From Ruminococcus sp. (GTDB lineage: Bacteria; Bacillota; Clostridia; Oscillospirales; Ruminococcaceae), in NCBI GenBank assembly GCA_017558505.1, contig JAFYUM010000011.1, forward strand, positions 13,439-77,438: 64,000 nt of DNA, written 5' to 3'. This document shows positions 29,311 through 45,863 of this stretch, piece after piece (the first letter of the stretch is position 1; every line of letters begins with the position of its first letter). A model generated the notes under the pieces. That model had not been told where the DNA came from. It did no database searches and was given only the letters and a program-made list of their open reading frames with translations. The translations under genes were made by a program, and so were the position numbers.

Positions 29311-30191
29311 TATTCCACATCCTTTCCTAAATGATTTTCAATGGCAAGGAGAATGGCAACAATCACAATCATAATAAGTGAGAAAAGCACAGCCGCCGAT
29401 GACAGTTTCTGATAGTCCAGACTGTTGAAGGTGTTGTTCATGAAGTGCTGGAGCATATACATTTTATCGTAGGGATAATCACCTGTAAGGAGATAGACCT
29501 CACGGAAAATCTTGAATGAGTTGATAAGTGAGAGTATCAGCACGAAAAGGATTGTGGGGGAAAGATATCTCAATTTGATATGTACAAACTGATACCAGCC
29601 GCTTGCTCCCTCCAGTTTTGCAACCTCGATAATATCACGGGGAATAGAGGCAAGGGCAGACATAAAGAGTATCATATTATAACCCATGTTTTTCCACAGG
29701 AACATCACTATAATGATAGTTTGTCCGTGAGAGGATTTCATCCAGTCGATAGATCCTCCGCCGAATGTTTCGATAATCTGATTGAGAGTTCCGTTTGTAT
29801 GGAAAAGAACCTGCCATACAAGTACAACTGAGGCGGTGGGAACCATGAGCGGACTGAGAAAAAATGTTCTCACAACACTTTTTCCGGGAATGTCCCTTTC
29901 AAGAAGAACTGCCATCCATAGCGAAAGAATAACAGCAAGAGGAACCGATATAAGCGAAAATGAGGCTGTATTTGCAGCGGCTTTCCTGAATGCTATAGTT
30001 TCCATCAGCCTTTTATAGTTTTCAAGTCCTACGAAATCATGTATAATGGGATTGTTGATTACAGAGTAGTAAACAACAATGCCGAATGGTATCAGAAAAA
30101 ATATCAGAACGCCGATAAGACTTGGCATAACACATATATTGCTGAATATGCGCTCGCCCCTTCGGCCGCACTGGTCTTTTCGTTTTTTCAA
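29310..30191 (-). CDS. Carbohydrate (CUT1) ABC permease, MalF-like
   Basis: FVGLENY, RTFFLSP, WKNMGYNMILF, EVAKLEGAS EAA loop; TTG at 30191 lies 9 nt after AAGGAG. Confidence 0.9.
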   Translation of the reverse strand: MKKRKDQCGRRGERIFSNICVMPSLIGVLIFFLIPFGIVVYYSVINNPIIHDFVGLENYKRLMETIAFRKAAANTASFSLISVPLAVILSLWMAVLLERDIPGKSVVRTFFLSPLMVPTASVVLVWQVLFHTNGTLNQIIETFGGGSIDWMKSSHGQTIIIVMFLWKNMGYNMILFMSALASIPRDIIEVAKLEGASGWYQFVHIKLRYLSPTILFVLILSLINSFKIFREVYLLTGDYPYDKMYMLQHFMNNTFNSLDYQKLSSAAVLFSLIMIVIVAILLAIENHLGKDVE

Positions 30192-30558
30192 ATTAAACAA
30201 CTCCTTTTATGTACAGGGGAACCCACTTTTTCTCTTTAAATATCCCTCTATATATAAGTGTCTTAAAAAGCCAAAAAAAACAAAGACTTGATAAATTTTT
30301 ATTTTTTAATCAAAGCTGTATTGCCGGCTGGTTGTTGAAAATGAAAAAACGGAAATTTAAAAAACAGGGATTTGCCAGTTTATAGCTGTTTTTTACATCG
30401 GGTTTTCTTCCGGTATAAAGCTTGATCGGGTAATACTATTACGAGATGAAAATAAAACCTTATATATTATAGTGGTGGTTTTGTTAACTGCGGTTTACAA
30501 ATGCAAACTTTCTTTTCACAAATCGTACTACATATAATAATACGGTTGTTACAATATC

Positions 30559-30587
30559 ATGATATCATATTAAATCAGATTTGTCAA
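30559..30587 (-). promoter_or_regulatory. Probable sigmaA promoter of the hybrid ABC locus
   Basis: Minus strand TTGACA (30587-30582)-17-TATCAT (30564-30559) with TGn. Confidence 0.55.
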
Positions 30588-30852
30588 TAGTTTTTTTAAA
30601 ATAACCCAAAGTAATTCTACATAAAGATTATATAATACAAAAATGAAAGTTGTCTGATAATTTTCTTAAAAGTTTCTTATAATTTCAATATATCTCTGAA
30701 AATCTGTCTGATTAAAGAAAAAGCAGATGACCTGCATAGCTGCTTTTAAAAATGGGCTTTTGTAGTTGCTCTTTAGTTTTTGAAAATATAAGGCAAAATT
30801 GTAATGGCGCATTGCTTTAATTTGTTAATAGTGCCAAAATTTCAAAACCCCC

Positions 30853-30881
30853 TTGACATTCGCTTCTGTTTGTGATATAAT
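30853..30881 (+). promoter_or_regulatory. sigmaA promoter of the tRNA operon
   Basis: TTGACA-17-TATAAT with TGn. Confidence 0.85.
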
Positions 30882-30903
30882 AATTAACGTTGAAACACAG
30901 AAT

Positions 30904-30977
<74 letters not shown>

Positions 30978-31011
30978 TTTAAAAGCAGCTTTGGCTGCTG
31001 ATTTTATCTAT

Positions 31012-31085
31012 GCGCCTTTAACTCAGCTGGATAGAGTAACTGCCTTCTAAGCAGTAAGCCGCTGGTTCGAATCCAGCAAGGCGCG
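31012..31085 (+). tRNA. tRNA-Arg(TCT)
   Basis: Acceptor GCGCCTT/AAGGCGC; anticodon arm ACTGC-CT-TCT-AA-GCAGT; no encoded CCA. Confidence 0.95.
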
Positions 31086-31093
31086 CTATATAT

Positions 31094-31168
31094 GGTGGGT
31101 GTAGCTTAGCTGGTTAAAGCGTCGGATTGTGGTCCCGAAGATCGTGGGTTCGAATCCCATCTCCCACC
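31094..31168 (+). tRNA. tRNA-His(GTG)
   Basis: G-1 plus GTGGGTG acceptor, anticodon loop TT-GTG-GT, GGTTCGAATCC T arm, C discriminator. Confidence 0.92.
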
Positions 31169-31180
31169 CTCATGAAACAG

Positions 31181-31208
31181 ACACTTTCGATTTTCGAAAG
31201 TGTTTTTT
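31181..31208 (+). terminator. Terminator after the tRNA operon
   Basis: ACACTTTCGA-TTT-TCGAAAGTGT followed by T-run. Confidence 0.8.
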
Positions 31209-31299
31209 GCTTTTGGGATACTTTTTATGTCTGACTGTTCAGAGTATGCCTGATGGCTTTGTGCTGAATTATATTATTAAAACGGAGGTTGAACTGACA

Positions 31300-33111
31300 A
31301 TGATGAAAACTGACAGTAAACCGCAGAACAGACTTAATATACCTATATGGATATTATGCTTTTTGAGCCTGATTTTAGTTTTTATTGTAGAAACAGAAAA
31401 ATTCTTTCCGCTGGATTCTCCTATGTTAGGTCATGATGCAAGCTATCATTATTTAAGGGTTGACGCATTGGCAGAAAGGATAAAAAGCGGAAATATACTT
31501 TCTGGAGGAATAGATTATCTCTTTCTTGATGGTCTTGGATATGCAAGCTCGCTTGCTTATCCTGATGTGATGCTGTACATTCCGGCATTTATGAGAGCTG
31601 CAGGGTGCGGCATCGGAGAAAGCATGGCAATTTTTCTGATGGTGTGTAATACCTTGTTTCTTATATCATCATTCTGGTGTACATACAGAATTTCAAAGTC
31701 GCCTGTGTGTGCAGCTGTTGCCACGGTGATTTTCTCAACCTCTTTTTATAGAAGTGACAATTTGTACACACGATTTGCCCTTGGAGAGGTTCAGGCTTTT
31801 ATTTTCTGGCCCTTAATCATATATGGTCTTTATGATTTCATTTTTGAAGATTTTAAAAAGCCATATGTTTTAGGTCTGGGAATTGTAGGAATGCTTTTCA
31901 CACATACAATATCAACGGCTCTGGCGGTTATTATGTGTGTCTTTATATGCCTTATATATATAAAGCGAATTATTAAATCCCCTAAAAATATATTAAAGCT
32001 TGCAGTAACAGCAGTTTGTGTTCTTGCGGTTACTTCGTTTTATTGGATACCGCTTCTTGAGCTTATGAGTTCCTGTGAACTTACAGTAAAGCATCCTATA
32101 GATAAGGCTTCAAAGTATACAGTTGAATTTATGACATTATTTAAGGATGTAAGCATAGGATACGGCAATGCCGGTCTGGGCATATTGATTTTTGCAGTTT
32201 GCGGTATAAGAGTGTTTGTAAAGCCGCAGGGTAAGAAAGCTGATACATCGCAGGATGTGCTACGGAAAAGGGAACTTCTTAAATTTGCAGATGTCTGCCT
32301 GATTCTTGCATTTGTATTTGTATTCATGACTGTAAAAACTCCTGCCTGGAAACTGCTTGCACCGCTGCTTGATTTTATGCAGTTCCCATGGAGAATGTTT
32401 GCGGTAGTTACCCTGCTTATCTCAATTGCAGTTGCCATATACGCTCATCTGATTGCAACTACTTTCAGAAGTAAGATGCTTCTTCCGCTGGTTGCTTCAT
32501 CTGTATTCATTCTGAATGTTGCAGTACATATGCATAACGTAGGTGCAGCCAGTCACGTATTACTACCATATAATGATGATTACTTTACGGGAAATCCCCA
32601 GGCAACATATAGTATAGGATATGGCGAATGGCTTCCATGGAGCGCTAAAAACTCCATGGATACATTAAAGCAGAATACACGTAAGGTTACTTCGAATGAC
32701 GGAACGGAACTGAAATACGAAAAGAAAAGCGATTATCTTGTATTTTCGCCTGATAAAGCATATGAATATGTAGTTGTTCCTTATATATGGTATAAAGGCT
32801 ATGCTGCATACGATGAGGGCGGAAATGAATATACGACTTCAATTTCTGATATCGGATTTGTCAAGGTAGAGTTGAATGGAAGAGAAGCTGATGGGGATAT
32901 TCGTGTAGAATATCGCTTTACCCCATTGAGAAAGGTTTCTGTTGCAATAAGCATTGTAACATCTGTACTTGTGCTTGCCTATTTCGTTACAGCAAGGATT
33001 AGAAAAAATAAAAAAACTGATGATAAAATGAAAGAAAATAACATAGAAAATTCAGAAGACACAAAAGAGGAAAATATATCTGTTGAGATTCATCAGGCAG
33101 AGGAAATATAA
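31300..33111 (+). CDS. Polytopic membrane protein, GT-C-fold glycosyltransferase-like (YfhO/PTPS-related type)
   Basis: GHDASYHYLRV, RFALGEVQAFIF, QFPWRMF, many TM helices, extracellular C-terminal domain; GGAGG RBS before 31300. Confidence 0.7.
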   Translation: MMKTDSKPQNRLNIPIWILCFLSLILVFIVETEKFFPLDSPMLGHDASYHYLRVDALAERIKSGNILSGGIDYLFLDGLGYASSLAYPDVMLYIPAFMRAAGCGIGESMAIFLMVCNTLFLISSFWCTYRISKSPVCAAVATVIFSTSFYRSDNLYTRFALGEVQAFIFWPLIIYGLYDFIFEDFKKPYVLGLGIVGMLFTHTISTALAVIMCVFICLIYIKRIIKSPKNILKLAVTAVCVLAVTSFYWIPLLELMSSCELTVKHPIDKASKYTVEFMTLFKDVSIGYGNAGLGILIFAVCGIRVFVKPQGKKADTSQDVLRKRELLKFADVCLILAFVFVFMTVKTPAWKLLAPLLDFMQFPWRMFAVVTLLISIAVAIYAHLIATTFRSKMLLPLVASSVFILNVAVHMHNVGAASHVLLPYNDDYFTGNPQATYSIGYGEWLPWSAKNSMDTLKQNTRKVTSNDGTELKYEKKSDYLVFSPDKAYEYVVVPYIWYKGYAAYDEGGNEYTTSISDIGFVKVELNGREADGDIRVEYRFTPLRKVSVAISIVTSVLVLAYFVTARIRKNKKTDDKMKENNIENSEDTKEENISVEIHQAEEI

Positions 33112-33236
33112 ACAGGCGTGTCGCAATAATTTTGATGTTCCTGTGGCTATATTCTTTTTATAGAGAATTGAGAGCAGATTTATCAAGAGGTTTATATATC
33201 GTAAATATTATATAAAGTTTCGGAGTTTTTTATGGT

Positions 33237-33285
33237 ATGCCGAATTGATTGAGAAGTAAATTCTTGATTAATTCGGCATTTTTTG
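33237..33285 (+). terminator. Strong terminator insulating the rSAM cluster
   Basis: 19-bp stem ATGCCGAATTGATTGAGAA/TTCTTGATTAATTCGGCAT whose three mismatches are all G-U on the plus strand, followed by T-run. Confidence 0.8.
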
Positions 33286-33320
33286 TTTGCTCAATATTGT
33301 AAAAATAGAGTTAAAATACT

Positions 33321-33391
33321 GTTTACTCCCTTTTTTATATCGTTTACTCTCTGTTTGTTGTAAATATACGAATAAGATGATATCATATAAT
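33321..33391 (+). promoter_or_regulatory. Activator-dependent (LytTR-type) promoter of the RiPP operon
   Basis: GTTTACTC at 33321 and 33342 (21-bp period), 36 nt, then TATAAT at 33386-33391; no -35 consensus. Confidence 0.72.
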
Positions 33392-33453
33392 CACAGAATA
33401 AATGTCATACGGATTTCACAAGAAATACTAACTGAATGAAAATGGAGGATGAA

Positions 33454-34749
33454 ATGAATTTATTTGAAGAAAAAGTTGCGTTTGCAGGATATGTAAGAAT
33501 TTACAATAGAGAGAAACGTACTCTTATTGCCAGTACTGAAAATAACAAATGCATTATGGTGAGCAGGGAAATATCCGATATTTTTAAACAGGCCGAAAAA
33601 GAAAACCTTACTTTTGGTGAACTGTTTGATAGCGTTGAAGACGAAGCATCACGTGAACTTTTAGTTCATCTCAGTGAGAAACTTCAAAGTTTGGCAATGT
33701 GGAAGCATATTGAAGATGAGCTCGAAAAAATCCCGAGAAGTGAAGTGTCTATTGATATAACAAACAATTGTAATCTCAGATGTAAGCATTGTTGTATATC
33801 GGCAGGAGATAATAAAAGAGGTTGTGATTTAACTACAAATGAGCTTTTAGAGCTCGCGGACAGAATTCTTCTGTTAAATCCCGCGACAATTTCCGTTTCT
33901 GGAGGTGAGCCTTTAGTCAGAAAGGATTTTAGAGAGTTCACTGATAGATTAAGAAGCAAATATAAAGGTACACTTATACTTATGACAAATGCGGTTCTTA
34001 TTAATAACGATGAGATTGCTAAATATCTTACAGATAATTATGATGGATTTGATATAAGTCTTGATGGATATGATGAAGAGACATGTGCTATGATAAGAGG
34101 CGAAGGTGTATTTGAAAAAGTGCTCAACGCTGTAAAGCTTTTACAAAAATATAATGGAAAAATAAGTCTGTCAATGGTTAAGACGAAGAAAACAGCTGAT
34201 AACATTATAAAATTTTCAGAGCTTTGTGAAAAACTGGGTGTGAAATCTCTTGTAAGATGTTTTGAACCAATGGGCAGAGGAGAAAAAAATAAGGATTTGT
34301 TTGAAATTAAAGAGGATCATACATGCGCTTGCGGTACGGATTGGACAAGGGAAAAAGATGTGTTCGAAAAAAAGAAAATGTATACAATAGCTCCGAACAT
34401 TTTTTCTTGTCATGGCGCTAAAACAGAGTTTCAGATAGATCAGAAGGGTGATGTATTCCCGTGTCCTATGTTTATGTCAATAGAATACAAACTTTTTAAT
34501 ATACTTGATATTGAAAATCCTGAAGAATTTATATCCGAAAAAAAATACATGGAATCAGACGGATATAAGAACTTCATGAAGTTTATGCCTTATAATTGTG
34601 ATAATTGTAAGGGTTGTGATAAGCAACTGTTTTGTTTTAGTTGTGCAGCAACTGTAAGAAAATGCGTTGAGGAGAATGATTTCGAATACTTCTGCAATGA
34701 ATGTGGAAAGTATTACGATATGTATTGGGAGAATCATGGGACTGTTTAA
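33454..34749 (+). CDS. Radical SAM/SPASM peptide maturase 1 with N-terminal RRE-like extension
   Basis: CNLRCKHC, SGGEPL, MTNA, ISLDG, MIRG, C...GDVFPC...CxxCxxCx5CxxC...C; about 90-aa beta/helical N-terminal domain; GGAGG RBS before 33454. Confidence 0.9.
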   Translation: MNLFEEKVAFAGYVRIYNREKRTLIASTENNKCIMVSREISDIFKQAEKENLTFGELFDSVEDEASRELLVHLSEKLQSLAMWKHIEDELEKIPRSEVSIDITNNCNLRCKHCCISAGDNKRGCDLTTNELLELADRILLLNPATISVSGGEPLVRKDFREFTDRLRSKYKGTLILMTNAVLINNDEIAKYLTDNYDGFDISLDGYDEETCAMIRGEGVFEKVLNAVKLLQKYNGKISLSMVKTKKTADNIIKFSELCEKLGVKSLVRCFEPMGRGEKNKDLFEIKEDHTCACGTDWTREKDVFEKKKMYTIAPNIFSCHGAKTEFQIDQKGDVFPCPMFMSIEYKLFNILDIENPEEFISEKKYMESDGYKNFMKFMPYNCDNCKGCDKQLFCFSCAATVRKCVEENDFEYFCNECGKYYDMYWENHGTV

Positions 34750-35737
34750 TATATGGCTTACTGAAGCTTGTAATCTTAAATGTACATATTGCTATGAAAG
34801 TAACAAAAGCATGAAGTATATGCAGAAAGATACCATTGAAAGAACAATAGAATTTATCTGTAGAAAAAGTGTTGGTATGGATAGTTGTATTATAAATTTT
34901 CATGGTGGAGAGCCTTTACTTGCATTTGATAACATTTTGTATTTTGTTTCGGAATTTAATAAACGTGGAGTTAGTGCAGTATATTCACTTACTACAAATG
35001 GCGTCTTACTTGATGAAGAAAAGATAAAAAGGTTTTATGAAAACAAGATTTATCTTTCATTAAGTCTTGATGGCAACGCTGAGGTAAATGATAAATGTAG
35101 AATATCCTGTGACGGAAAAGGGACATATGAAAAGGTAGCAGTAAAAATTCCATTAATAATGAAATATTACCCTGAACTTCGAATCAGGATGACAGTTACA
35201 CCGGAAACTTCAATTCATTTATTTGATTCAGTAAAACACATAAGTCAATTAGGCGGAAAACTTATTATTGCTGTTCCAGACCTTTATGATAATAAATGGA
35301 CGAAGGAACTTATAAACAACGTTGAAAAACAAGTAATTGATTTGTATAAAGAATTTAAAGATAGTGATACGGAATTTCTGTTTTTTGAAAAGCTTGAGAA
35401 TTGCAAAAAAGGTAAATGCGATGGCGGAATTAATGAGTTCAACATAAGCATAGAGGGAAAGCTTTATCCTTGTTCGTTTGTTACGGGTAATGATGACTAT
35501 CTCATAGGTAATGTTGTTGATGATGTTGATGAAGCTTTATTATCAAAATTCAGTGCTGTTTATGGAAAATCAAATTACACATGCAGTGGATGTGGACGTG
35601 AAGAAATATGTACCGCTTCAAGATGTAAGTTTGTAAATGCAATGATGACCGGAGATCCTTTAAAAGTACATCCTGTTATTTGTACTTTTGAACATATGAT
35701 CAATAACATTTCAAGAAAAATTAAAAATCAAGTATAA
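34736..35737 (+). CDS. Radical SAM/SPASM maturase 2, no RRE
   Basis: CNLKCTYC at residues 12-19, FHGGEPLL, TTNG, LSLDG, CDGG...GKLYPC, CxxCx5Cx4C...C; overlaps the end of rSAM1. Confidence 0.9.
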   Translation: MGLFNIWLTEACNLKCTYCYESNKSMKYMQKDTIERTIEFICRKSVGMDSCIINFHGGEPLLAFDNILYFVSEFNKRGVSAVYSLTTNGVLLDEEKIKRFYENKIYLSLSLDGNAEVNDKCRISCDGKGTYEKVAVKIPLIMKYYPELRIRMTVTPETSIHLFDSVKHISQLGGKLIIAVPDLYDNKWTKELINNVEKQVIDLYKEFKDSDTEFLFFEKLENCKKGKCDGGINEFNISIEGKLYPCSFVTGNDDYLIGNVVDDVDEALLSKFSAVYGKSNYTCSGCGREEICTASRCKFVNAMMTGDPLKVHPVICTFEHMINNISRKIKNQV

Positions 35738-35766
35738 AAATAAGCGTTAAAAGGATAGGATAATCT

Positions 35767-35997
35767 ATGAAAGTGGAAAGAATCGGGAATGCATATTTTA
35801 ATGAATTTGAAGGTATGGCGCAGAGTTGTTGGAATGAATGTGCTGAATACCGTGGTAAAACATCGATGATAAATACGCTTATAAGGAATGCGGGATTTAA
35901 GGGCGACGGAACCGATAAAGAAAAAGAAATGCTGGAGAAGGCTTTTGGAAGTTATTGCTGCAAAGAACGATCTCCGAAAACCAGTATGTTCTGGTGA
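35767..35997 (+). CDS. Putative RiPP precursor 1 (76 aa)
   Basis: NEFEGMAQ-SCWNECAEYRGKTS...GFKGD...FGSYCCKE.SPKTSMFW; own RBS; paralogy with three neighbours. Confidence 0.85.
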   Translation: MKVERIGNAYFNEFEGMAQSCWNECAEYRGKTSMINTLIRNAGFKGDGTDKEKEMLEKAFGSYCCKERSPKTSMFW

Positions 35998-36019
35998 GTA
36001 AACACAAGGAGAATTCGCA

Positions 36020-36250
36020 ATGAAGATTGAAAAAATAGATGAAGTATATATAAATGAGTTTGATGGAGAAGCACAGGGGTGTTTTGCAGATTGTGCAGAA
36101 TATCGTGGAAAAACATCGGGCGTTTATAAACAGCTTTCTGTTTCCGGGTATTATGGTGATGGATCAGACAGGAACACACAGGAGATAATTAAAGTATTCG
36201 GTAGTTATTGTTATAAGGAGTACTCGCCAAAAACCTGTATGTACTGGTGA
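36020..36250 (+). CDS. Putative RiPP precursor 2 (76 aa)
   Basis: NEFDGEAQ-GCFADCAEYRGKTS...GYYGD...FGSYCYKE.SPKTCMYW; AAGGAG RBS. Confidence 0.85.
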   Translation: MKIEKIDEVYINEFDGEAQGCFADCAEYRGKTSGVYKQLSVSGYYGDGSDRNTQEIIKVFGSYCYKEYSPKTCMYW

Positions 36251-36283
36251 TTATAGATATTAAATATTAAAGGAGGTGATATC

Positions 36284-36523
36284 GTGAAGATTGAGAGAAT
36301 TGAAAATGGATTTGTAAACGAATTTGAGGGCGAGGCACAGAACTGCTGGGATGATTGTACAGAGTACAGAGGCAAGACATCCGGAATTAATTCTCTGATC
36401 AGACGTGCAGGTTATAAGGGCGACGCTTCAAGATCAGACCTTAATCAACTTGCAGAAATCAAAGATGTTTTTGGCTACTACTGCTACAGAGAAAAGACAC
36501 CCAAGACAAGTATTTACCTTTAA
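36284..36523 (+). CDS. Putative RiPP precursor 3 (79 aa, GTG start)
   Basis: NEFEGEAQ-NCWDDCTEYRGKTS...FGYYCYRE.TPKTSIYL; AAGGAGGT RBS. Confidence 0.85.
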   Translation: MKIERIENGFVNEFEGEAQNCWDDCTEYRGKTSGINSLIRRAGYKGDASRSDLNQLAEIKDVFGYYCYREKTPKTSIYL

Positions 36524-36562
36524 TGGTAGATAAAATATAAAAATCTTAAGGAGGATAAAATT

Positions 36563-36802
36563 ATGAAAATTGAGAAAATTGAAAATGGATTTGTAAACGA
36601 ATTTGAGGGCGAAGCACAGAGCTGCTGGGATGATTGTACAGAGTACAGAGGCAAGACATCCGGAATTAATTCTCTGATCAGACGTGCAGGTTATAAGGGC
36701 GACGCTTCAAGATCAGACCTTAATCATCTTGCAGAAATCAAAGATGTTTTTGGTTACTACTGCTACAGAGAAAAGACACCCAAGACATGTATTTATTGGT
36801 AA
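36563..36802 (+). CDS. Putative RiPP precursor 4 (79 aa)
   Basis: 74 of 79 residues identical to precursor 3; ends PKTCIYW; AAGGAGG RBS. Confidence 0.85.
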   Translation: MKIEKIENGFVNEFEGEAQSCWDDCTEYRGKTSGINSLIRRAGYKGDASRSDLNHLAEIKDVFGYYCYREKTPKTCIYW

Positions 36803-36840
36803 TCCATTAAGAATAGGAGATATCAGTACATTTTACGGCA

Positions 36841-36867
36841 TACTGCACAAAGTTTATTTGTGCAGTA
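36841..36867 (+). other. Stem-loop after the precursor array, no U-tract
   Basis: TACTGCACAA-AGTTTAT-TTGTGCAGTA. Confidence 0.6.
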
Positions 36868-36895
36868 CTGCTGTAATAAAGTACTTGTAAAAAAT

Positions 36896-37837
36896 ATGAA
36901 ATATAATATAGCTATAATCGACAGCAGTGTTGATTATTCTCTTATCTCTGAAAAAAGCAGGGATAAAATCGTCACATATAATATGGTAGAACCCGAAGGC
37001 AATATGAGTCATGCAGCTTATGTTATAGATACTTTGTTTAAATATAGCAATAATATAAATAAAATCTATTTATATGATGTTTTCGGTGATAATCCGCGTG
37101 CAAGCGGCAGAGCTGTAATCAATTCTCTTGAAAAAATCGCAACACAGGATGATGTGCGCCTTATACTCGTTTGTCTTACTTTGGCAAATAAAGAGAGATT
37201 TGAAGAAACAAAAGAGATATGCAATTTACTTGCTGCTCAAAACAAGGTTATTATAGCATCATATGCAAATCGTGGAACAGATACTGATAATCATTATCCT
37301 GCATGTTTCGAATGTACGATAGGTGTATATCAGGGGGCTTATGAAAAAGAACCGTTTTTTGGTAAAATATCTGATAAATCTGATTTGCCTGGAGATGCAT
37401 CTCCGGAGTTTATTAAAACAGGAGAAAATCAATATGCTATATTTGGCGGTACAAGTAAAGCTGTTCCTAAGCTTGCTGCTTATATAATAAATATGTTTGA
37501 GGAAGACAATATAAACATCGACAAAGTGCTGGAATATCTTGCTCGGAAGAGTAATGATGAAGATGATAATATTCTTGAACTTTTAAAAAGCAATTGCGAA
37601 GGTTCTGTAAAGAATGAAAACAAAGCACTTAACAGAGAACTCTTTCAAAAATACAAAAAATATAATGATATATCAGATGAATGTGATGATGCATCAATAA
37701 TGCAGCTCGGAAACAATGCGGGTGAATATGTTTCAGAGGTTTTAAATGAATATAAATCTGATATGACTCCCGATATGCTTATGTGTAGAGATTTTTACAC
37801 CGTAAAGTCTTTGAGCAAATTTGTTGACAGGGGCTGA
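36896..37837 (+). CDS. Cytoplasmic S8 (subtilisin-like) peptidase with C-terminal ACP-like extension (start uncertain, 36860 or 36896)
   Basis: IAIIDS (Asp), SHAAYV (His), ASYAN (oxyanion Asn), YPA, GGTSKAVP (Ser); no signal peptide. Confidence 0.8.
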   Translation: MKYNIAIIDSSVDYSLISEKSRDKIVTYNMVEPEGNMSHAAYVIDTLFKYSNNINKIYLYDVFGDNPRASGRAVINSLEKIATQDDVRLILVCLTLANKERFEETKEICNLLAAQNKVIIASYANRGTDTDNHYPACFECTIGVYQGAYEKEPFFGKISDKSDLPGDASPEFIKTGENQYAIFGGTSKAVPKLAAYIINMFEEDNINIDKVLEYLARKSNDEDDNILELLKSNCEGSVKNENKALNRELFQKYKKYNDISDECDDASIMQLGNNAGEYVSEVLNEYKSDMTPDMLMCRDFYTVKSLSKFVDRG

Positions 37838-37841
37838 AAAA

Positions 37842-39527
37842 ATGAATAAAAGTAAAAACAGAAGTTTTTTTACTAAACTCAAAAATGTAGAAAGAAAATA
37901 CCATCTTGATATTTTCTGGTGTATTTTGAAAAAATTCAAAAAATATTATTTCATAGCCATGGTTATTGCACTTCTGAAATCGGTAACAGGATACGCAGCT
38001 CCGCTTATAAATATCCTGATAATTGACCATGGTATCGGAAAAAAGAATATTAATTTGTTATTGCTTGCGGTTATGCTCATGATAGCATTATATGTGATAT
38101 GTGAGGTAATTGCTTATATTGATACAAAATTCAATATGTTTTTTCGATATAAAATCGAATTATTTGTAAAAAAGAAAGTAATATCATATTGTATATACAA
38201 CAGTTTTTCTGAAAATTCGTCTGGAGAATATGAAACATTAATAACAAGCGATTCAGAAAGAGTTGTTTCTCTTTCTTTGTCGCTTTTTTCAAGCATAGCT
38301 CTTAGTCTGTTTAATACCATAACATCATTGGTTGTACTTTTGAAAATACAGCCTCTGCTATCAATCCCGGCTGTTATTATGCAGGTTGTCATGGTTCTTA
38401 TTCGTCTTAAAACTTCAAATATAGAAGAGAAAAACGGTTCGATGGCAAGAGAAAGCTTTGTTAAGTTATGGTCTGTAATAACTGAATTGGTTAATAATAT
38501 AAGAAATATAGCTATTCTTGGTGCAGGTAGATATGCAGAAAAACGTTTTGAAAATGCGATGAAAAATGATTATAATGTAAGAAGCAGAAATAATTTGTTT
38601 AGTACTAAGATATGCAGTTTTGTTTCAGTTGGAATGTCTGCTTCAACTTGTATTCTTCTTGCATTAGGTGGTATATTAGTTATATTGGAAAAGATGACGG
38701 TGGGAAAACTTGTAACATTTAATCAGTATGCAGGTAATTTGTCAACACCGTTGCTTGAACTATTTACTATACCTACTGATATGAGTGCAGAGCTTGCATC
38801 TCTTGATCGCGTGGCACATATATTCAATTACAAATATGATAAGGATATAAATCAACTTAAACACGTTTCGAGTATTAAGGTAGATAAATTGTCATTTTCA
38901 TATGGTGAGAAGAAGATTCTTGAAAATGTAGTGGCTGAATTTGAAAAAGGAACCAAGTATTATATAAGGGGCAAAAGTGGTTCAGGTAAGTCTACATTTA
39001 TTAATCTTATATCAGGCAGGCAGTCATATGAAAGCGGTGAGATTTTTTATGACGGAATTTCTCTTAAAGATATTGATGTAGAAAGTCGAATGGAACTTAT
39101 ATCTTTTGTTTCACAGGATGCGGTATTATTTAACGATTCTATAGAAAATAATATAATACTTGATCTAGAATATAATAAAGAAAAATTAGAAAAAGTATGT
39201 AAATGTTGCAGAATTTATGATGATATAATAAATCTTCCGGACAGCTTTTCAACTATGGTTTCGGAGAATGGCATTAATTTTTCCGGTGGACAGAAAAGCA
39301 GACTTTGTTTAGCAAGAGCGTTGTATCAAGAGAAACCAATAATTATTATAGATGAAGTAACGGCAGGTCTTGATAGTGACACCGAAAGTGAACTCCGTGA
39401 CAATCTTGTTAATGAATTATCGGACAAAATTACGTTGATAATTACGCATAGCAATAATTTTGTTATGTTGAATTCTGTAATTTATTACCTGAATAAAAAT
39501 CATCTCAATGTAAAGGAGAATACATAA
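37842..39527 (+). CDS. ABC exporter (TMD+NBD) without C39 peptidase domain
   Basis: 6-TM N-terminus, GKSGSGKST, FSGGQ, IIIIDE. Confidence 0.9.
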   Translation: MNKSKNRSFFTKLKNVERKYHLDIFWCILKKFKKYYFIAMVIALLKSVTGYAAPLINILIIDHGIGKKNINLLLLAVMLMIALYVICEVIAYIDTKFNMFFRYKIELFVKKKVISYCIYNSFSENSSGEYETLITSDSERVVSLSLSLFSSIALSLFNTITSLVVLLKIQPLLSIPAVIMQVVMVLIRLKTSNIEEKNGSMARESFVKLWSVITELVNNIRNIAILGAGRYAEKRFENAMKNDYNVRSRNNLFSTKICSFVSVGMSASTCILLALGGILVILEKMTVGKLVTFNQYAGNLSTPLLELFTIPTDMSAELASLDRVAHIFNYKYDKDINQLKHVSSIKVDKLSFSYGEKKILENVVAEFEKGTKYYIRGKSGSGKSTFINLISGRQSYESGEIFYDGISLKDIDVESRMELISFVSQDAVLFNDSIENNIILDLEYNKEKLEKVCKCCRIYDDIINLPDSFSTMVSENGINFSGGQKSRLCLARALYQEKPIIIIDEVTAGLDSDTESELRDNLVNELSDKITLIITHSNNFVMLNSVIYYLNKNHLNVKENT

Positions 39528-41900
39528 ATGTTCAAATTAGCCTACAGATACATGAAAAGCAACATAAAAAGCAGTATCAGAGCAGTGTTTGGAATTGCTT
39601 TTTCGATAATGCTGATGTTTAGTCTTGTGCAGATAAGCGGCTATATTATGGATAGTTTTAAAGAACTTGTCAGTACAGGAATGCGTCGTGACTTCACAGT
39701 GTATAACATAAGTGGTGAAGAAACAATTGAAATTCATCATAAACTTACAGAATCCCCGGTTACAGATAAACAAAAGATTATGTCTATGATCTGGGTAGGT
39801 TCTGTTTATGAAACAGAACTTGAAGAATATAAAGTGCTTGGAGTTTCGGGAGATATTGATTATTTTAAAGATACCAGAATGATAAGTAATTCTCTACCAA
39901 CTGGCAACAATGAAATATGCATAGAAAAAAGTTATGCTGACAGAAAAAATCTAAAAGCAGGTGATGAAATATCACTTAATATATTCTTCTTTAATGAATT
40001 GAGCGGTGAAAGTGCAGAGAAGACATTTGATTTTACAATAAGCAGTATTATTGATGATCTTGTTGATGATGGAACGTATTTTTTTACAAGTCTTCCCTGT
40101 GCAGTAAACATTATTAAAGAAAGTGGCATAAGCAGCGATAATCTTTCTAACTCAATTGCTTTTGAAACAATCGAGGGCGATTATGATGTTGAAAAGACAG
40201 TTGATGCAGAATATCTGATTAAAGATATATTAGCGACAAAAAATCCTGAGAAAGCAGAAACTTTTTTTAAGGAATGTATCATAAATAATGATCAGAAATC
40301 TATGAATTATGACGAAAAAGGTACATTTACTTCGGTTTCCTTCGGAGTGCTTGCGATTTCTGTGATTATTGCGTTATGTATGATTATTTTTGTTTATAAT
40401 TCTCTTAATATAAGTCTTATTCAGAAACTGGATAATCTTGCTGTTATGAGATGTATAGGAATGAATAACCGACAGCTTGCACAAATGGTGCTTGCAGAGG
40501 CTATAATTCTTACTAATATTTCATTTGTTGCAGGTGTGGTAGCTGGTAATTTGCTGAATATGCTGGTGGCAGAAAAAATTGTCGGAACGCTTATACAGGG
40601 TGGAGCAGATGTGAGTATTTCCCAAAACCCAATTATATATTTAACAGTGTATATACTTGCAATGCTTTCTGTTCTTATTGCTTGTGTGCGTCTTATATTG
40701 AGATTTTATAAAATAAAGCCTATTAACCTTTCTAAATTTGGAAGCGGGAAGGAAATAAAGAGCAATTTTTCCAAGGGTGGATTAAGTGGAAAAAGATATT
40801 TCTATGGTTTTGCTACAAGAAATATAAAGCGTAATTTTTCTAAAAGTATCACACAGATTGTAACAGTTTCTTTGAGCTATCTCCTCTGTTTTGTAATTTG
40901 TAATACATTTCTTACTGTAAGTACAGGTTCATCCAAAAGTCTTGCTGATATATGTGATTATTCGTTAAAGGCAGATATTGTTCTCAGTCAGAGTTGCTTT
41001 ACTGAAGTTGATGTGGATGTTTTGAAAGATAAATACAAGATTGATACTATTTATACACAATCAGATTTAATGAATGAAGTTGAATGTAATGTTAACGATA
41101 ATTCAGTTCAGCCTATTGTATATAGTAATAATCTTGCAAGTGTACTTGCAAAAAACCTGAAGCTTGATTATAATAGTGAAAAGCCTTTTGCGGTACTTAT
41201 CGGTGAAGGATGCTCTGATAAAAAGGATATAAGTGTTAAGGTAAATGATAAGGAACACATAATTAAGCTTAATGGTTCATATGATGATGTTTCTGATAGC
41301 TTGCAAAGTGTACTTCGTTCAATTGGAACATATCTTCTCATGAATGAGAAAGCTGCTTCTGAAATTGGTTGTAAAACAGATACATTTTCGTCTGTTTTAC
41401 TTGAAACAAATGAAAAAATCACAATCGAGTCAATTAATGAAGAATTTGAAGGTATTGAGTTGGTTGTTGAAGATATGAACGAAGGTAAAAAACAGAGTGC
41501 ACAGCAGCTTCTTGGAATAGTAATGCTTGCGATTTATATTGTAGCTGCAACTATCTTATTAAGCTTTATGATAATCAATAATACCATAAGAGAAAACGCT
41601 GTTACAAGAAAGCGTGAATTTGGAATTATGTGTGCTATTGGTATGAAACGAAAAAGTCTTTGTAAAATATGCTGTTGGGAAAATGTAATACTCAACGTTA
41701 TATCATGTGTTGCAGGCACAGTTTTGTCATTGCCGATAAATATATATATTACTATGACGCTTCATAACAATATACGTGTTTCTGCGACAGCTTACGTAGT
41801 TGTTATTGCGGTATTTACAACTGTAACTGCGTTTTTCTCATATTTATTCATGAAGAAATATTCGAACAGTTCCATTGTTGATATGATTAAGATTGATTAA
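39528..41900 (+). CDS. FtsX/MacB-type ABC permease with two FtsX domains
   Basis: LAVMRCIGMNNRQL and REFGIMCAIGMKRKSL FtsX motifs, two large extracellular domains. Confidence 0.85.
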   Translation: MFKLAYRYMKSNIKSSIRAVFGIAFSIMLMFSLVQISGYIMDSFKELVSTGMRRDFTVYNISGEETIEIHHKLTESPVTDKQKIMSMIWVGSVYETELEEYKVLGVSGDIDYFKDTRMISNSLPTGNNEICIEKSYADRKNLKAGDEISLNIFFFNELSGESAEKTFDFTISSIIDDLVDDGTYFFTSLPCAVNIIKESGISSDNLSNSIAFETIEGDYDVEKTVDAEYLIKDILATKNPEKAETFFKECIINNDQKSMNYDEKGTFTSVSFGVLAISVIIALCMIIFVYNSLNISLIQKLDNLAVMRCIGMNNRQLAQMVLAEAIILTNISFVAGVVAGNLLNMLVAEKIVGTLIQGGADVSISQNPIIYLTVYILAMLSVLIACVRLILRFYKIKPINLSKFGSGKEIKSNFSKGGLSGKRYFYGFATRNIKRNFSKSITQIVTVSLSYLLCFVICNTFLTVSTGSSKSLADICDYSLKADIVLSQSCFTEVDVDVLKDKYKIDTIYTQSDLMNEVECNVNDNSVQPIVYSNNLASVLAKNLKLDYNSEKPFAVLIGEGCSDKKDISVKVNDKEHIIKLNGSYDDVSDSLQSVLRSIGTYLLMNEKAASEIGCKTDTFSSVLLETNEKITIESINEEFEGIELVVEDMNEGKKQSAQQLLGIVMLAIYIVAATILLSFMIINNTIRENAVTRKREFGIMCAIGMKRKSLCKICCWENVILNVISCVAGTVLSLPINIYITMTLHNNIRVSATAYVVVIAVFTTVTAFFSYLFMKKYSNSSIVDMIKID

Positions 41901-41916
41901 TTCAGGAGGATAGATT

Positions 41917-42585
41917 ATGTCAGTAATTACAGTGAAAAATCTCAATAAATATTATAAAACAGGAAATGAAAGCTATCATGCATTAAAAAACATTAATTTT
42001 GAGGTTGGTGAGGGTGAATTTGTAGTAATCCTTGGCCAGAGTGGCTCTGGTAAGAGTACTTTGCTTAATATAATAGGCGGTCTTGATGACTATGATTCGG
42101 GTGATGTATGTCTCAATGCTATGAATTATAAGGATACAGATGATATCACGATGTCAAATTTCAGATGCAGTACAATAGGGTTTGTATTCCAGTCATACAA
42201 TCTTATACCAGTTCTTAATGTGTATGAAAATATAGTTTTTCCTGTAAACATAAGTAATAAAAAAGTAGATGAGGAATATATCAGTCAGCTTATGACAAAA
42301 CTTGGTATAGCGGACAAGAGAAAATCATTTCCATCCATGCTGTCAGGTGGTCAGCAGCAGAGGGTAGCGATTGCCAGAGCCCTTGCGAATAAGCCGAAAA
42401 TCATTTTAGCTGATGAGCCTACAGGAAATCTTGATACAATTACAGGAAATGATGTTTTACAGATATTGCTTGATGGTGTTCATACCTATGGTCAGACTCT
42501 GGTTATGATAACACATAATCCAAGTATTGCTGAATATGCTGATCGTGTGATAAGAATTGAGAATGGAGTAATTGTGCAGCAATAA
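41917..42585 (+). CDS. LolD/MacB-type ABC ATP-binding protein
   Basis: GQSGSGKST, IGFVFQSYNLI, LSGGQQQRVAIARAL, ILADEPTGNLD. Confidence 0.93.
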   Translation: MSVITVKNLNKYYKTGNESYHALKNINFEVGEGEFVVILGQSGSGKSTLLNIIGGLDDYDSGDVCLNAMNYKDTDDITMSNFRCSTIGFVFQSYNLIPVLNVYENIVFPVNISNKKVDEEYISQLMTKLGIADKRKSFPSMLSGGQQQRVAIARALANKPKIILADEPTGNLDTITGNDVLQILLDGVHTYGQTLVMITHNPSIAEYADRVIRIENGVIVQQ

Positions 42586-42623
42586 AAGTGTGATTGCTTT
42601 TTGGATGAAAGGAAATGTGTTGT

Positions 42624-43064
42624 ATGCAGATAGTGGAAAATCAAAATTTATATTTTGATAATGTTCTTTCATATGTTTCTGGTATGGATAATACGCAGAC
42701 TATGGGGCTTGTAAATCATATCTTGAAGAATCTTGAAAGTATAGGACTTGAAGTGAGAGAAAAAGTTATGTTCACCTATTCTGATTCGGAAACAGAATTT
42801 CTTATTCCTTTGAAAAATGAAAAAACGTATGAAAACAGTGGGTATAGAATTAAACCAAAATTCAAGATGATAAATGCTGTGAAAATCAGATTTGAAGGGG
42901 ATTTTGGCGACATTGATATAGCGTTGAAAGCGTTGGAAAAGTATATATCTGAAAAAAAGTACAGGGTGATTTCACGGCCATATTATGTAGTTGTAAGAAG
43001 TAATGTGAATTCAAACAGTGGGATTTGGGATATATATATCAGTATTGACGGTAATATATTTTAG
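42624..43064 (+). CDS. GyrI-like/DUF5085-type small-molecule-binding protein
   Basis: About 146 aa, beta-alpha-beta-beta pattern, AVKIRFEG...LEKYISEKKY...PYYVV...WDIYISIDGNIF. Confidence 0.55.
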   Translation: MQIVENQNLYFDNVLSYVSGMDNTQTMGLVNHILKNLESIGLEVREKVMFTYSDSETEFLIPLKNEKTYENSGYRIKPKFKMINAVKIRFEGDFGDIDIALKALEKYISEKKYRVISRPYYVVVRSNVNSNSGIWDIYISIDGNIF

Positions 43065-43077
43065 TTTTTTGTAAAGT

Positions 43078-43240
43078 TATTGCTCCACCAATAAAACCTT
43101 GCTAAAAAAGACGAATACAGAAAGATAATTTATCAAGGAAGAAAAACGTAGAAATAAATCTTCATTTCAAGTTTTTCTAACGTAGAGAAATTTTCTTTGT
43201 GTCTGGTGTTTGATGGTAAGGGTTAGTTGGTGGAGCAATA
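43078..43240. repeat. 163-bp element bounded by perfect 14-bp inverted repeats
   Basis: TATTGCTCCACCAA (43078-43091) and TTGGTGGAGCAATA (43227-43240). Confidence 0.6.
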
Positions 43241-43305
43241 TTTATAGGGATTTTAATATTTCCCTTATGACTCGATTGTATATAGAAAATTACAGCATGA
43301 AAGCG

Positions 43306-43341
43306 AAAAACCTTCTTAAACATGATGTTTTAAGAAGGTTT
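43306..43341 (-). terminator. Probable terminator of the micro-ORF transcript
   Basis: Perfect 13-bp stem AAACCTTCTTAAA/TTTAAGAAGGTTT, ending in U5 on the minus strand. Confidence 0.65.
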
Positions 43342-43366
43342 AATTATATCAATTTCCAAAAAACAA

Positions 43367-43395
43367 TTGACAATTGGCTCGAAATGTTGTATAAT
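43367..43395 (+). promoter_or_regulatory. Consensus sigmaA promoter of the LytTR/HK pair
   Basis: TTGACA-17-TATAAT. Confidence 0.78.
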
Positions 43396-43418
43396 AAAAT
43401 ACGAAAAACATTTAATGT

Positions 43419-43460
43419 TTAATACCAGAGTGAATTTAACCATTCTACTAATTTTGACAT
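43419..43460 (-). CDS. 13-aa micro-peptide MSKLVEWLNSLWY (candidate signalling peptide)
   Basis: GGAGG (43472-43468) 7 nt before ATG; own promoter upstream and terminator downstream. Confidence 0.62.
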   Translation of the reverse strand: MSKLVEWLNSLWY

Positions 43461-43535
43461 TTTACTTCCTCCATTTTGTTTAATTATAGTAATATAGAAC
43501 TTTAGAAATGATTTTAACACGTGTTTATTAGCATG

Positions 43536-43606
43536 ATTATATAATAACTCATTCGGAGAAATTATGCCACAAAAGTGGAGCGAAAGGATATGTTTTTTGA
43601 GTAAAC
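43536..43606 (-). promoter_or_regulatory. LytTR-type promoter of the micro-peptide
   Basis: GTTTACTC (43606-43599), N13, TTTCGCTC (43585-43578), N36, TATAAT (43541-43536); same spacing as at 33321-33391. Confidence 0.65.
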
Positions 43607-43645
43607 GGGAAATAAAAATGATTTTGGAATTTATTTGGAGGAAAA

Positions 43646-44359
43646 ATGAAAATAGCAATATGTGATGATCAAAAGATTATGCGCGAACTTCTGAAAACAC
43701 AATTGGAAAAATACGCTCATAAGAAAAAATTGTGTTTTGTTTATAATGAATACGATAACGGGTTTGAGATGATTAAAAATGCCATAGATAATGATCTGAT
43801 TTTTATGGATTATCAAATGGACAAGATAGATGGGATACAAACCGCTAAAGAATTAAGAAAAAAGAAAATTGAAACGCCTATTATATTTCTTACAAGTTTT
43901 CCAGACGTTGTTTTCGATGTTTTTGAAGTAAAAGCATATCGTTTTTTGACAAAACCAATTAGCGAACAACAATTAACCAATGCGCTTGATTCACTTATTG
44001 AAGAATTTGCAGAAGAAAACTTTCTTGTCATAAAAACCGATGATGGAATAAAAAGAATAAATATCAATGATATAATATGTGCAGAAGCAGTCGATAAGTA
44101 CTGTTATATAAGTACGACCAGTGGCACAGTTTTATATAAAAAGACATTATCTGTTTTAGAAGAACAATTGCCATCAAATTTGTTTTTTCGTTCACACAGA
44201 ACATATCTTGTAGGTTATAGTCATATTCTGTCTCATACTAATACGGAAATCTTACTTGACAGTAAAGAAAAAGCGTTGATAAGTAAAACGAAAGCTTCGG
44301 CTTTTAAAAAAAATTTTTTAGAATATATAAAGAATTACAGTATGAGAGGGCGAAGTTAA
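43646..44359 (+). CDS. LytTR-family (AgrA-like) response regulator
   Basis: IAICDD, LIFMD, FLTS, AYRFLTKP, FFRSHRTYLV; GGAGG RBS. Confidence 0.93.
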   Translation: MKIAICDDQKIMRELLKTQLEKYAHKKKLCFVYNEYDNGFEMIKNAIDNDLIFMDYQMDKIDGIQTAKELRKKKIETPIIFLTSFPDVVFDVFEVKAYRFLTKPISEQQLTNALDSLIEEFAEENFLVIKTDDGIKRININDIICAEAVDKYCYISTTSGTVLYKKTLSVLEEQLPSNLFFRSHRTYLVGYSHILSHTNTEILLDSKEKALISKTKASAFKKNFLEYIKNYSMRGRS

Positions 44360-44360
44360 G

Positions 44361-45668: not shown

Positions 45669-45730
45669 TAGGAACTTCGAAAAACTCTGTAAATTGTGAT
45701 AAAAACGTTAGATAGGAGTGTCCTGAAATG

Positions 45731-45807
45731 AAATGCTCCTCTTTTGTTAAGACTTTGATTTGGTATATTGCTATTATACCACGTTGTCTAACAAAAGGGG
45801 AGCATTT
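45731..45807. terminator. Long inverted repeat between convergent genes at the right end of the island
   Basis: AAATGCTCCTCTTTTGTTAAGAC / GTCTAACAAAAGGGGAGCATTT with inner hairpin GGTATA/TATACC. Confidence 0.65.
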
Positions 45808-45863
45808 AATTTTTTCTGAACTTGTGCAGTTTGTTCATTAAGAAAGTGGGTGTATCGGTTATA

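Follow-up and report, generated by a model that had tools for sequence, protein, structure and literature searches.

Description of the locus

The gene pair described here encodes two enzymes of the radical S-adenosylmethionine (rSAM) kind, rSAM1 and rSAM2, and lies on the forward strand of contig JAFYUM010000011.1 of a Ruminococcus sp. assembly (GCA_017558505.1). The window is the whole stretch of DNA analysed, 64,000 nucleotides long. Both enzymes consist of a radical-SAM core and a SPASM region. Only rSAM1 possesses a further N-terminal domain, with the predicted fold of a recognition element (RRE) of peptides made on ribosomes and modified after translation (RiPPs). Four precursor genes, a putative leader protease and transporter genes follow on the same strand (Table 1). 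All structural statements are predictions.

The start of rSAM1 is ATG 33454, with GGAGGA 5 nt upstream; an in-frame ATG at 33436 is without a ribosome-binding site. The start of rSAM2 is ATG 34736, preceded by GGGAGA. An earlier note on this DNA gave an overlap of 14 nt between the two genes, which is exact (34736–34749). No terminator-like site is seen between rSAM1, rSAM2 and the precursors. By BLASTP, residues 99–394 of rSAM1 align with residues 5–292 of rSAM2 at 24% identity, and residues 1–98 of rSAM1 are without counterpart. Pfam Radical_SAM (PF04055) is matched by rSAM1 at 81.1 bits (1.4e-22) and by rSAM2 at 48.2 bits (cut-off 29.5). Pfam SPASM is matched at 18.3 and 17.8 bits, respectively, slightly under the cut-off of 21.5.

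Table 1. Features of the cassette and its neighbourhood; positions are those of the window. aa, amino acids.
Feature	Position	Strand	Remarks
Strong terminator-like hairpin closing the upstream gene	33237–33279		
Promoter-like site upstream of rSAM1 (weak)	33358–33386	+	Regional count not above shuffle expectation
rSAM1, RRE-rSAM-SPASM peptide maturase, three domains	33454–34749	+	431 aa
Predicted RRE-like (PqqD-fold) leader-recognition domain of rSAM1	33454–33729	+	Residues 1–92
rSAM1 radical-SAM cluster motif C106-x3-C110-x2-C113	33769–33792	+	Invariant in 53 homologues
HTCAC segment of rSAM1, non-conserved loop	34318–34332	+	Residues 289–293
rSAM1 SPASM region	34408–34695	+	Seven conserved Cys (319, 337, 385, 388, 394, 397, 414)
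Shine-Dalgarno sequence of rSAM2 (GGGAGA)	34727–34732	+	Written in the Trp-Glu codons of the conserved rSAM1 C-terminal tail
Overlap of rSAM1 stop and rSAM2 start	34736–34749	+	14 nt; translational coupling
rSAM2, rSAM-SPASM maturase, two domains, without RRE	34736–35737	+	333 aa; PapB/CteB/QhpD lineage
rSAM2 radical-SAM cluster motif C12-x3-C16-x2-C19	34769–34792	+	Invariant in 36 homologues
rSAM2 SPASM region	35417–35683	+	Seven conserved Cys (228, 246, 283, 286, 292, 297, 316)
Precursor A1	35767–35997	+	76 aa; leader MKVERI..., core C-W-N-E-C ... C-C ... W
Precursor A2	36020–36250	+	76 aa
Precursor A3	36284–36523	+	79 aa; GTG start; C-terminal Leu instead of Trp
Precursor A4	36563–36802	+	79 aa
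Subtilisin-like (S8, QhpE-like) putative leader protease	36860–37837	+	Likely true start ATG 36896; NCBIfam QhpE 1.3e-11, under cut-off
ABC exporter (transmembrane domain and ATPase)	37821–39527	+	Likely start ATG 37842
FtsX-type permease and ABC ATPase, probable immunity/export pump	39528–42585	+	Permease 39528–41900; ATPase 41917–42585
Open reading frame between ABC ATPase and LytTR regulator	42615–43064	+	149 aa; no Pfam match; may be an immunity/accessory protein
LytTR response regulator and GHKL histidine kinase, probable locus regulator	43646–45668	+	Regulator 43646–44359; kinase 44361–45668

Description of rSAM1

The cluster motif of rSAM1 is preceded by 105 residues, in agreement with the roughly 90 extra N-terminal residues, strands followed by helices, that had been noticed from the sequence. 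The AlphaFold2 model of this N-domain, built on a 45-sequence alignment, has a predicted local distance difference test score (pLDDT) of 93 and a predicted template-modelling (TM) score of 0.81. It contains strands 14–19, 22–27 and 33–37, then helices 38–49, 54–59 and 64–79 and a linker helix 84–91. The topology is that of a beta3-alpha3 winged helix, and the same elements are present in the full-length model. In a Foldseek search of the PDB the top 11 matches of the N-domain are all RREs (ThcOx N-domains, TbiB1 with leader, CteB, lasso-peptide B1), with probabilities of 0.91–1.0, TM-scores of 0.49–0.58 and modest E-values of 6e-3 to 0.3. The RRE of PbtF stands lower in the same list. Pfam PqqD (PF05402) is not matched by any of 45 family N-domains at E ≤ 10, and a profile search of PDB sequences with the N-domain recovers no RRE; the RRE was thus picked up by the fold-level test and by neither sequence-level test. 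The PqqD-like fold suspected in the earlier note is thereby found at the level of structure. The N-domain of rSAM1 is very probably RRE-like by fold, as modelled, and is not filed as a member of PF05402. It presumably binds the leader of the cognate precursor.

A hidden Markov model (HMM) of the N-domain, run over all six-frame open reading frames of the window, finds exactly one copy (E 3e-31; next best 0.13). The claim that only the first of the two enzymes carries such a domain therefore holds: rSAM2 is without it and the window has a single copy. A discrete RRE elsewhere in the island was considered and rejected, the same search having found none within the 64 kb. Among 1.84 billion representatives, a profile search gives 351 clusters with the rSAM1 N-domain, the full-length members being about 403–438 aa long.

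The seven SPASM cysteines of rSAM1 are arranged as C319, C337, C385-x2-C388-x5-C394-x2-C397 and C414 in a 53-sequence alignment. The full-length model has a pLDDT of 91.7, and its best PDB matches by fold are CteB (E 8e-16), SkfB, SuiB and TigE over about 450 columns. By sequence the best PDB match is SkfB (2.3e-10). The best NCBIfam match is StsB (NF045574; 1.8e-29). Its 102.9 bits fall short of the cut-off of 625, and rSAM1 is thus not a member; WgkB, MftC and NirJ score nearly as well. In sequence lineage rSAM1 groups with StsB, SkfB, MftC and WgkB. Orthologues are 403–439 aa long and present in every related locus.

The extra HTCAC segment pointed out earlier exists and falls in the rSAM2 gap of the BLASTP alignment, but no role for it is supported. 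Its cysteines are absent from the orthologues, and residues 290–293 are the sole stretch of at least three residues in rSAM1 with pLDDT below 50. On these grounds an extra cluster ligand or conserved metal-binding motif was rejected; the segment is probably an idiosyncratic loop with no function.

Description of rSAM2

Members of the rSAM2 family are 325–350 aa long. The start of rSAM2 lies 11 residues before CxxxCxxC, exactly as first read. About 65 homologues begin 8–16 residues ahead of the motif, and in two metagenome loci (L028, L029) an upstream in-frame stop leaves the short enzyme at most 10 residues there; the short N-terminus is therefore not a start-codon artefact. The SPASM cysteines are C228, C246, C283-x2-C286-x5-C292-x4-C297 and C316 (36-sequence alignment). 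The family alignments thus bear out the unlike spacings reported for the two enzymes, Cx2Cx5Cx2C in rSAM1 and Cx2Cx5Cx4C in rSAM2. The GGEP SAM motif, CxxxCxxC and the seven SPASM cysteines are kept in both families down to about 30% identity. With all cluster ligands and the SAM motif kept, rSAM2 most likely serves as a second, active catalyst and not as a scaffold.

The best NCBIfam match of rSAM2 is PapB (NF047865), at 1.2e-54 and 185.7 bits against a cut-off of 340, and rSAM2 thus falls outside the family. With this model, 184–238 bits are reached by orthologues and neighbouring clades, all under the cut-off, and no PapB-family member above it was present among the homologues tested. Nif11-type, CcpM, QhpD (8e-33) and SCIFF maturases are the next matches. 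The NF047865 model has 330 positions and begins at the radical-SAM core (rSAM2 matched 7–328), whereas an N-terminal RRE at residues 1–86 is reported for PapB (PMC12715619). Neither rSAM1, rSAM2 nor any orthologue tested reached an NCBIfam curated cut-off. The best PDB match is CteB (3.8e-26), aligned without large insertions over its residues 103–417; as the alignment begins only at residue 103, rSAM2 is without the RRE of CteB. In sequence lineage rSAM2 groups with PapB, CteB and QhpD. More distant relatives (a SCIFF maturase, a maturase of a ParLac system) possess about 100–120 residues before the motif.

Description of the precursors

Precursors A1–A4 are tandem paralogues that fall into two sequence pairs. 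Homologous precursors are situated 3' of rSAM2 in L002–L009. No NCBIfam model was matched by the precursors. In 21 aligned precursors the leader begins M-K-I-x-K-I and continues as an acidic/hydrophobic stretch to near G/A-Q. C21 and C25 are invariant, D24 is present in at least 90% (C-x-x-D-C), and there is a third cysteine; [ND]-A-Y and an aromatic residue at the C-terminus are frequent. The C-x-x-D-C motif occurs also in the precursors of L029, L112, L114, L115, L116 and L117; exceptions are E in A1 of the window and N in one peptide of L028. The window precursors contain an insert of about 30 residues between C-x-x-D-C and the C-terminal Cys region, by comparison with the 50–60-aa precursors of Paenibacillus and other loci. 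In L112 (Eubacterium rectale type), L029 and L115 the precursors bear an extra cysteine upstream of C-x-x-D-C. The constants of the cassette are the single-copy short enzyme and C-x-x-D-C, while the long enzymes differ in number and kind and the other Cys positions vary. The two constants together suggest that rSAM2 acts on C-x-x-D-C. Ranthipeptides are defined by a thioether that joins the Cys sulfur to a non-alpha carbon, sactipeptides by one to an alpha carbon; of the ranthipeptide class, what is seen is the sequence prerequisite, this nearly invariant motif.

Conservation of the pair

Loci were drawn from a scan of species-representative genomes, from look-ups of remote homologues of rSAM2 and of rSAM1, and from metagenomes. 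Taken from homologue lists, they form a non-random sample of 23 (the window and 22 others). All 23, even those at only about 30% identity, have the pair: exactly one short rSAM adjoins one or more long rSAMs that bear the RRE-like domain. Long partners have 92–111 residues before CxxxCxxC and match the RRE-domain HMM at E 1e-35 to 2e-6. Short partners have 9–16 residues there, give no match to this HMM and are single-copy throughout. Paired loci belong to Ruminococcus, Eubacterium, Roseburia, Blautia, Acetivibrio, Ruminiclostridium and Paenibacillus.

Nine loci came from the species-representative scan (Ruminococcus flavefaciens, R. albus, Ruminococcus spp., Eubacterium, Roseburia, Acetivibrio mesophilus, a Clostridiales metagenome-assembled genome) and have the gene order rSAM1, rSAM2, precursor, S8, ABC, FtsX in common. 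The same pairing is seen at 27–36% identity to rSAM2 (Paenibacillus durus, P. odorifer, metagenome-assembled genomes, a Joint Genome Institute (JGI) genome), at 31–37% identity to rSAM1 (Eubacterium rectale type, Blautia coccoides, Ruminiclostridium josui, Metaclostridioides type, a Clostridiaceae genome) and in two metagenome loci. The latter, L028 and L029, are the only two of 80 loci from a JGI metagenome scan with the rSAM2 profile that fall in the clade. The other JGI loci hold unpaired relatives of 24–33% identity, about half of them with a long N-terminus of their own and some in non-RiPP contexts, and have little bearing on the cassette. An S8 gene is present in 20 of the 23 loci; L001 ends before its position, and none occurs in the stretch read for L115 and L116. 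The E. rectale-type version adjoins an AgrB gene. It has entries in 9563 index blocks and is therefore very common in gut metagenomes.

Three loci (L029, L112, L115) contain two long rSAMs and one short, both long enzymes keeping the RRE-like domain. L108 keeps the pair in inverted order, the short gene preceding the long one. A more distant second cluster of Paenibacillus durus (L117) contains four rSAMs, two of them without N-terminal domain and one of these PapB-like. The PapB-like one, with no N-terminal domain, is 376 aa long; the others are a B12-binding rSAM, an rSAM of 363 aa and a SPASM enzyme of 444 aa that matches the RRE HMM weakly. An S8 protease and a 47-aa precursor bearing C-Y-H-D-C accompany them. 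The protein P0297 (752 aa) was considered as a natural rSAM2-rSAM1 fusion and rejected, being instead an S8 protease fused to a long rSAM. Its S8 peptidase is N-terminal to an RRE-rSAM (domain at residues 332–418); it is either a real fusion or a gene-call/frameshift artefact.

The 14-nt overlap is identical in L001–L008; elsewhere the overlap is 4 nt or there is a gap of 0–12 nt. The tail of the long enzyme is YW[ERG], with W425 at least 90% conserved, and in nearly all loci, remote ones included, it encodes the Shine-Dalgarno sequence of the short gene (GGAG, GGGAG or GGGGG). The junction codons are TGG followed by GAG, AGA or GGG, again in nearly all loci. At this junction (window 34720–34738; L001–L116) a single stretch is thus constrained both as protein and for translation. 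A programmed +1 frameshift across the overlap was rejected, the junction not being a conserved slippery site (L001 has GTA TAA). To judge from these sequences, the two genes are usually coupled in translation, and the coupling argues for co-translation of rSAM1 and rSAM2, which would be made in fixed proportion.

Proposed function and alternatives

With moderate confidence, the cassette is regarded as a RiPP locus in which rSAM1 and rSAM2 are the two core maturases and rSAM2 reaches its substrate through the RRE of rSAM1. The RRE of rSAM1 would hold the conserved leader (MKIxKI...). With its RRE, radical-SAM barrel and SPASM region with two auxiliary clusters, rSAM1 would make one kind of link at the remaining Cys/aromatic positions, and rSAM2 would install a Cys-to-Asp thioether at C-x-x-D-C. 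Most likely the two would put different cross-links into the same core peptide. While rSAM1 holds the leader, rSAM2 would receive the substrate in a hetero-complex or by hand-over, and translational coupling may set the proportion of the two enzymes. The parts of this reading differ in strength. That two active catalysts would work on one peptide is likely; a true dependence of rSAM2 on the RRE of rSAM1 is proposed tentatively, from comparison and precedent. The borrowing of leader recognition within a complex, put forward in the earlier note, would be one plausible form of this dependence. Two different cross-link chemistries had been deduced earlier from the Cys spacings. The spacing difference by itself does not predict chemistry, and this part of the argument falls; the enzymes belong to different SPASM lineages, so that different chemistry is reasonable on that ground.

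RREs are leader-binding elements that hand substrates on to one enzyme or to several (PMC12710340). PapB forms Cys-Asp/Glu thioethers and accepts 0–6 intervening residues (PMC9413430). PapB deprived of its RRE is reported (PMC12715619) to be inactive in vivo and to be rescued by the RRE in trans. Further precedents are TrnC and TrnD, which form an obligate complex (PMC12093266), and HghB and HghC, two rSAMs that a single RRE protein, HghD, serves (PMC11002830). The more distant relatives of rSAM2 with a long N-terminus, and PapB with its reported RRE, stand against a clade without the domain that is always partnered, and this gives comparative support to the dependence.

Several points weigh on the other side. 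PapB acts on peptides that have no leader, and in vitro it stays active when its RRE is missing (PMC12715619), so that a PapB-type core may need no RRE. In the three loci with three rSAMs each long enzyme keeps its own RRE-like domain, and sharing of the RRE is therefore not general. Operon coupling means co-function and is no proof of physical contact. The RRE assignment is a predicted structure with modest Foldseek E-values, and sequence profiles missed both PqqD and the solved RREs. The nearest families of rSAM1 span sactisynthases, C–C cross-linkers and MftC.

The first two of these points also favour the alternative that rSAM2 is autonomous and reads the C-x-x-D-C core directly, without leader, RRE or rSAM1, only operon and substrate being common, since PapB is its closest characterised relative. 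Another relative, anSME (E 1e-19), is naturally without RRE, and distant short relatives of rSAM2 stand alone in other contexts. Autonomy is a serious rival but nevertheless somewhat unlikely: the short enzyme is clustered with an RRE-bearing rSAM in all 23 loci and in L117, and in the 23 it is adjacent, with genes mostly overlapping or abutting. The reported failure in vivo of PapB without RRE points the same way.

An ordered pathway without a stable complex is considered rather improbable. In it rSAM1 would act first by means of its RRE, and rSAM2 would then recognise the constrained, rSAM1-modified peptide. It has a precedent in bicyclostreptin, where HghB needs HghC-modified HghA (PMC11002830), and it agrees with the earlier translation of rSAM1 and with the separate conserved elements of the precursor (C-x-x-D-C, and a further Cys with [ND]AY). 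The inverted gene order of L108, however, indicates that translation order is not essential.

It is very unlikely that one enzyme is mainly structural, as in TrnC/TrnD, where both are needed and only one radical-SAM activity is strictly essential (PMC12093266): CxxxCxxC, GGEP and the seven SPASM Cys are kept in both families across about 30% identity, rSAM1 and rSAM2 are of different lineages at 24% identity and not near-duplicates, and rSAM2 is without the N-terminal domain, the element that mediates the TrnC–TrnD contact. That each rSAM serves its own subset of precursors (e.g. A1/A2 and A3/A4) is suggested by the two sequence pairs of the window paralogues and is very improbable, as only one precursor gene accompanies the two rSAMs in, for example, L002–L008, L110, L114 and L116.

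Surroundings of the cassette

Within window 30000–46000 the cassette is located in a low-GC island (0.31–0.36, as against 0.40–0.47 in the flanks) that begins right after genes for tRNA-Gly, tRNA-Arg and tRNA-His (30904–31169). A low-GC island behind tRNA genes suggests horizontal acquisition, which may have taken place here. A 660-aa open reading frame at 31129–33111 (+) begins inside tRNA-His, so that its N-terminus is an artefact of open-reading-frame listing; the real gene probably encodes a polytopic membrane protein, starts further downstream and has a weak EpsG-like match. The LytTR/GHKL pair stands at the end of the island. Such pairs usually go with bacteriocin-type loci that are regulated by peptide sensing. 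The gene at 45864–47705 (−) encodes a leucine-rich-repeat protein of BspA type that includes a dockerin domain, which indicates a host of Ruminococcus type bearing a cellulosome. Bovine and other gut metagenomes contain DNA of the cassette; no RNA runs carrying the cassette were found.

Comparison with known systems

A literature search found no paper on the cassette. In a genome-mining table of 2014, R. albus 7 is entered with a putative, uncharacterised sactipeptide rSAM (PMC4289311). The cassette is widespread in gut and rumen Firmicutes and apparently undescribed. Two rSAMs dividing the labour with a single RRE have precedents, and as a concept this is not new. New, as it appears, are the fusion of the RRE to one partner while the other is a naturally RRE-less PapB-type core, the strict conservation of this arrangement and the precursor family. 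A new RiPP class is conceivable but doubtful: it would be defined by a C-x-x-D-C core and an obligate hetero-complex of RRE-rSAM and RRE-less PapB-type enzyme, with mixed chemistry, e.g. a sactionine or C–C link together with a Cys-Asp ranthionine. If the proposed function is true, the cassette offers a natural case in which two unrelated radical-SAM catalysts are served by a single recognition domain, itself fused to one of the two, and it bears on the debate whether PapB-type thioether synthases need guidance by leader and RRE in the cell. Relatives of the cassette occur in abundant human-gut species, and the products may have a part in how members of gut and rumen communities compete or signal. 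The small RRE-less core of rSAM2 may be a convenient catalyst for peptide stapling.

Thuricin CD maturases TrnC/TrnD. Two co-encoded rSAM/SPASM enzymes act on the same peptides as an obligate tight complex with one canonical RRE (PMC12093266), and in this they resemble the pair. They differ in that both possess N-terminal domains, which mediate the complex, and both are sactisynthases of the same kind; rSAM2 has no N-domain and is of another lineage, so N-terminal domains on both partners are not found here.

Bicyclostreptin enzymes HghB/HghC/HghD. Two rSAMs of different chemistries act in order on one precursor with one RRE (PMC11002830). A single RRE with two rSAMs is likewise found in the window, but the RRE-like domain is fused to rSAM1, whereas HghD is a discrete RRE protein. 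The Hgh enzymes, precursor and chemistry (O–C and N–C links) are unrelated to the cassette.

CteB (thermocellin/SCIFF maturase, 5WGG/5WHY). The RRE of CteB is among the top fold matches of the rSAM1 N-domain. CteB stands as a single enzyme and carries an RRE of its own, and rSAM2 corresponds to CteB residues 103–417 only.

StsB/SkfB-type sactisynthases. StsB is a sactisynthase (PMC10288494). The layout of RRE, rSAM and auxiliary clusters is that of rSAM1, which is not an StsB member.

PapB/freyrasin (ranthipeptide maturase, Paenibacillus polymyxa). Like rSAM2, PapB has a radical-SAM core and a seven-Cys SPASM region. PapB accepts C-X0-6-D (PMC9413430), and in the cassette substrate only a few residues separate Cys from Asp. 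PapB differs by its reported N-terminal RRE (residues 1–86, PMC12715619), absent from rSAM2. In freyrasin one rSAM acts on six C-X3-D repeats, whereas the cassette has one C-x-x-D-C and a second rSAM, and the auxiliary motif of rSAM2 is Cx2Cx5Cx4C.

QhpD/QhpE (maturation of quinohemoprotein amine dehydrogenase). The cassette shares with this system the rSAM lineage of Cys-to-Asp/Glu thioethers and a QhpE-like S8 leader protease, with scores under cut-off. It differs in having no dehydrogenase subunits, the substrate being an exported peptide with ABC transporters.

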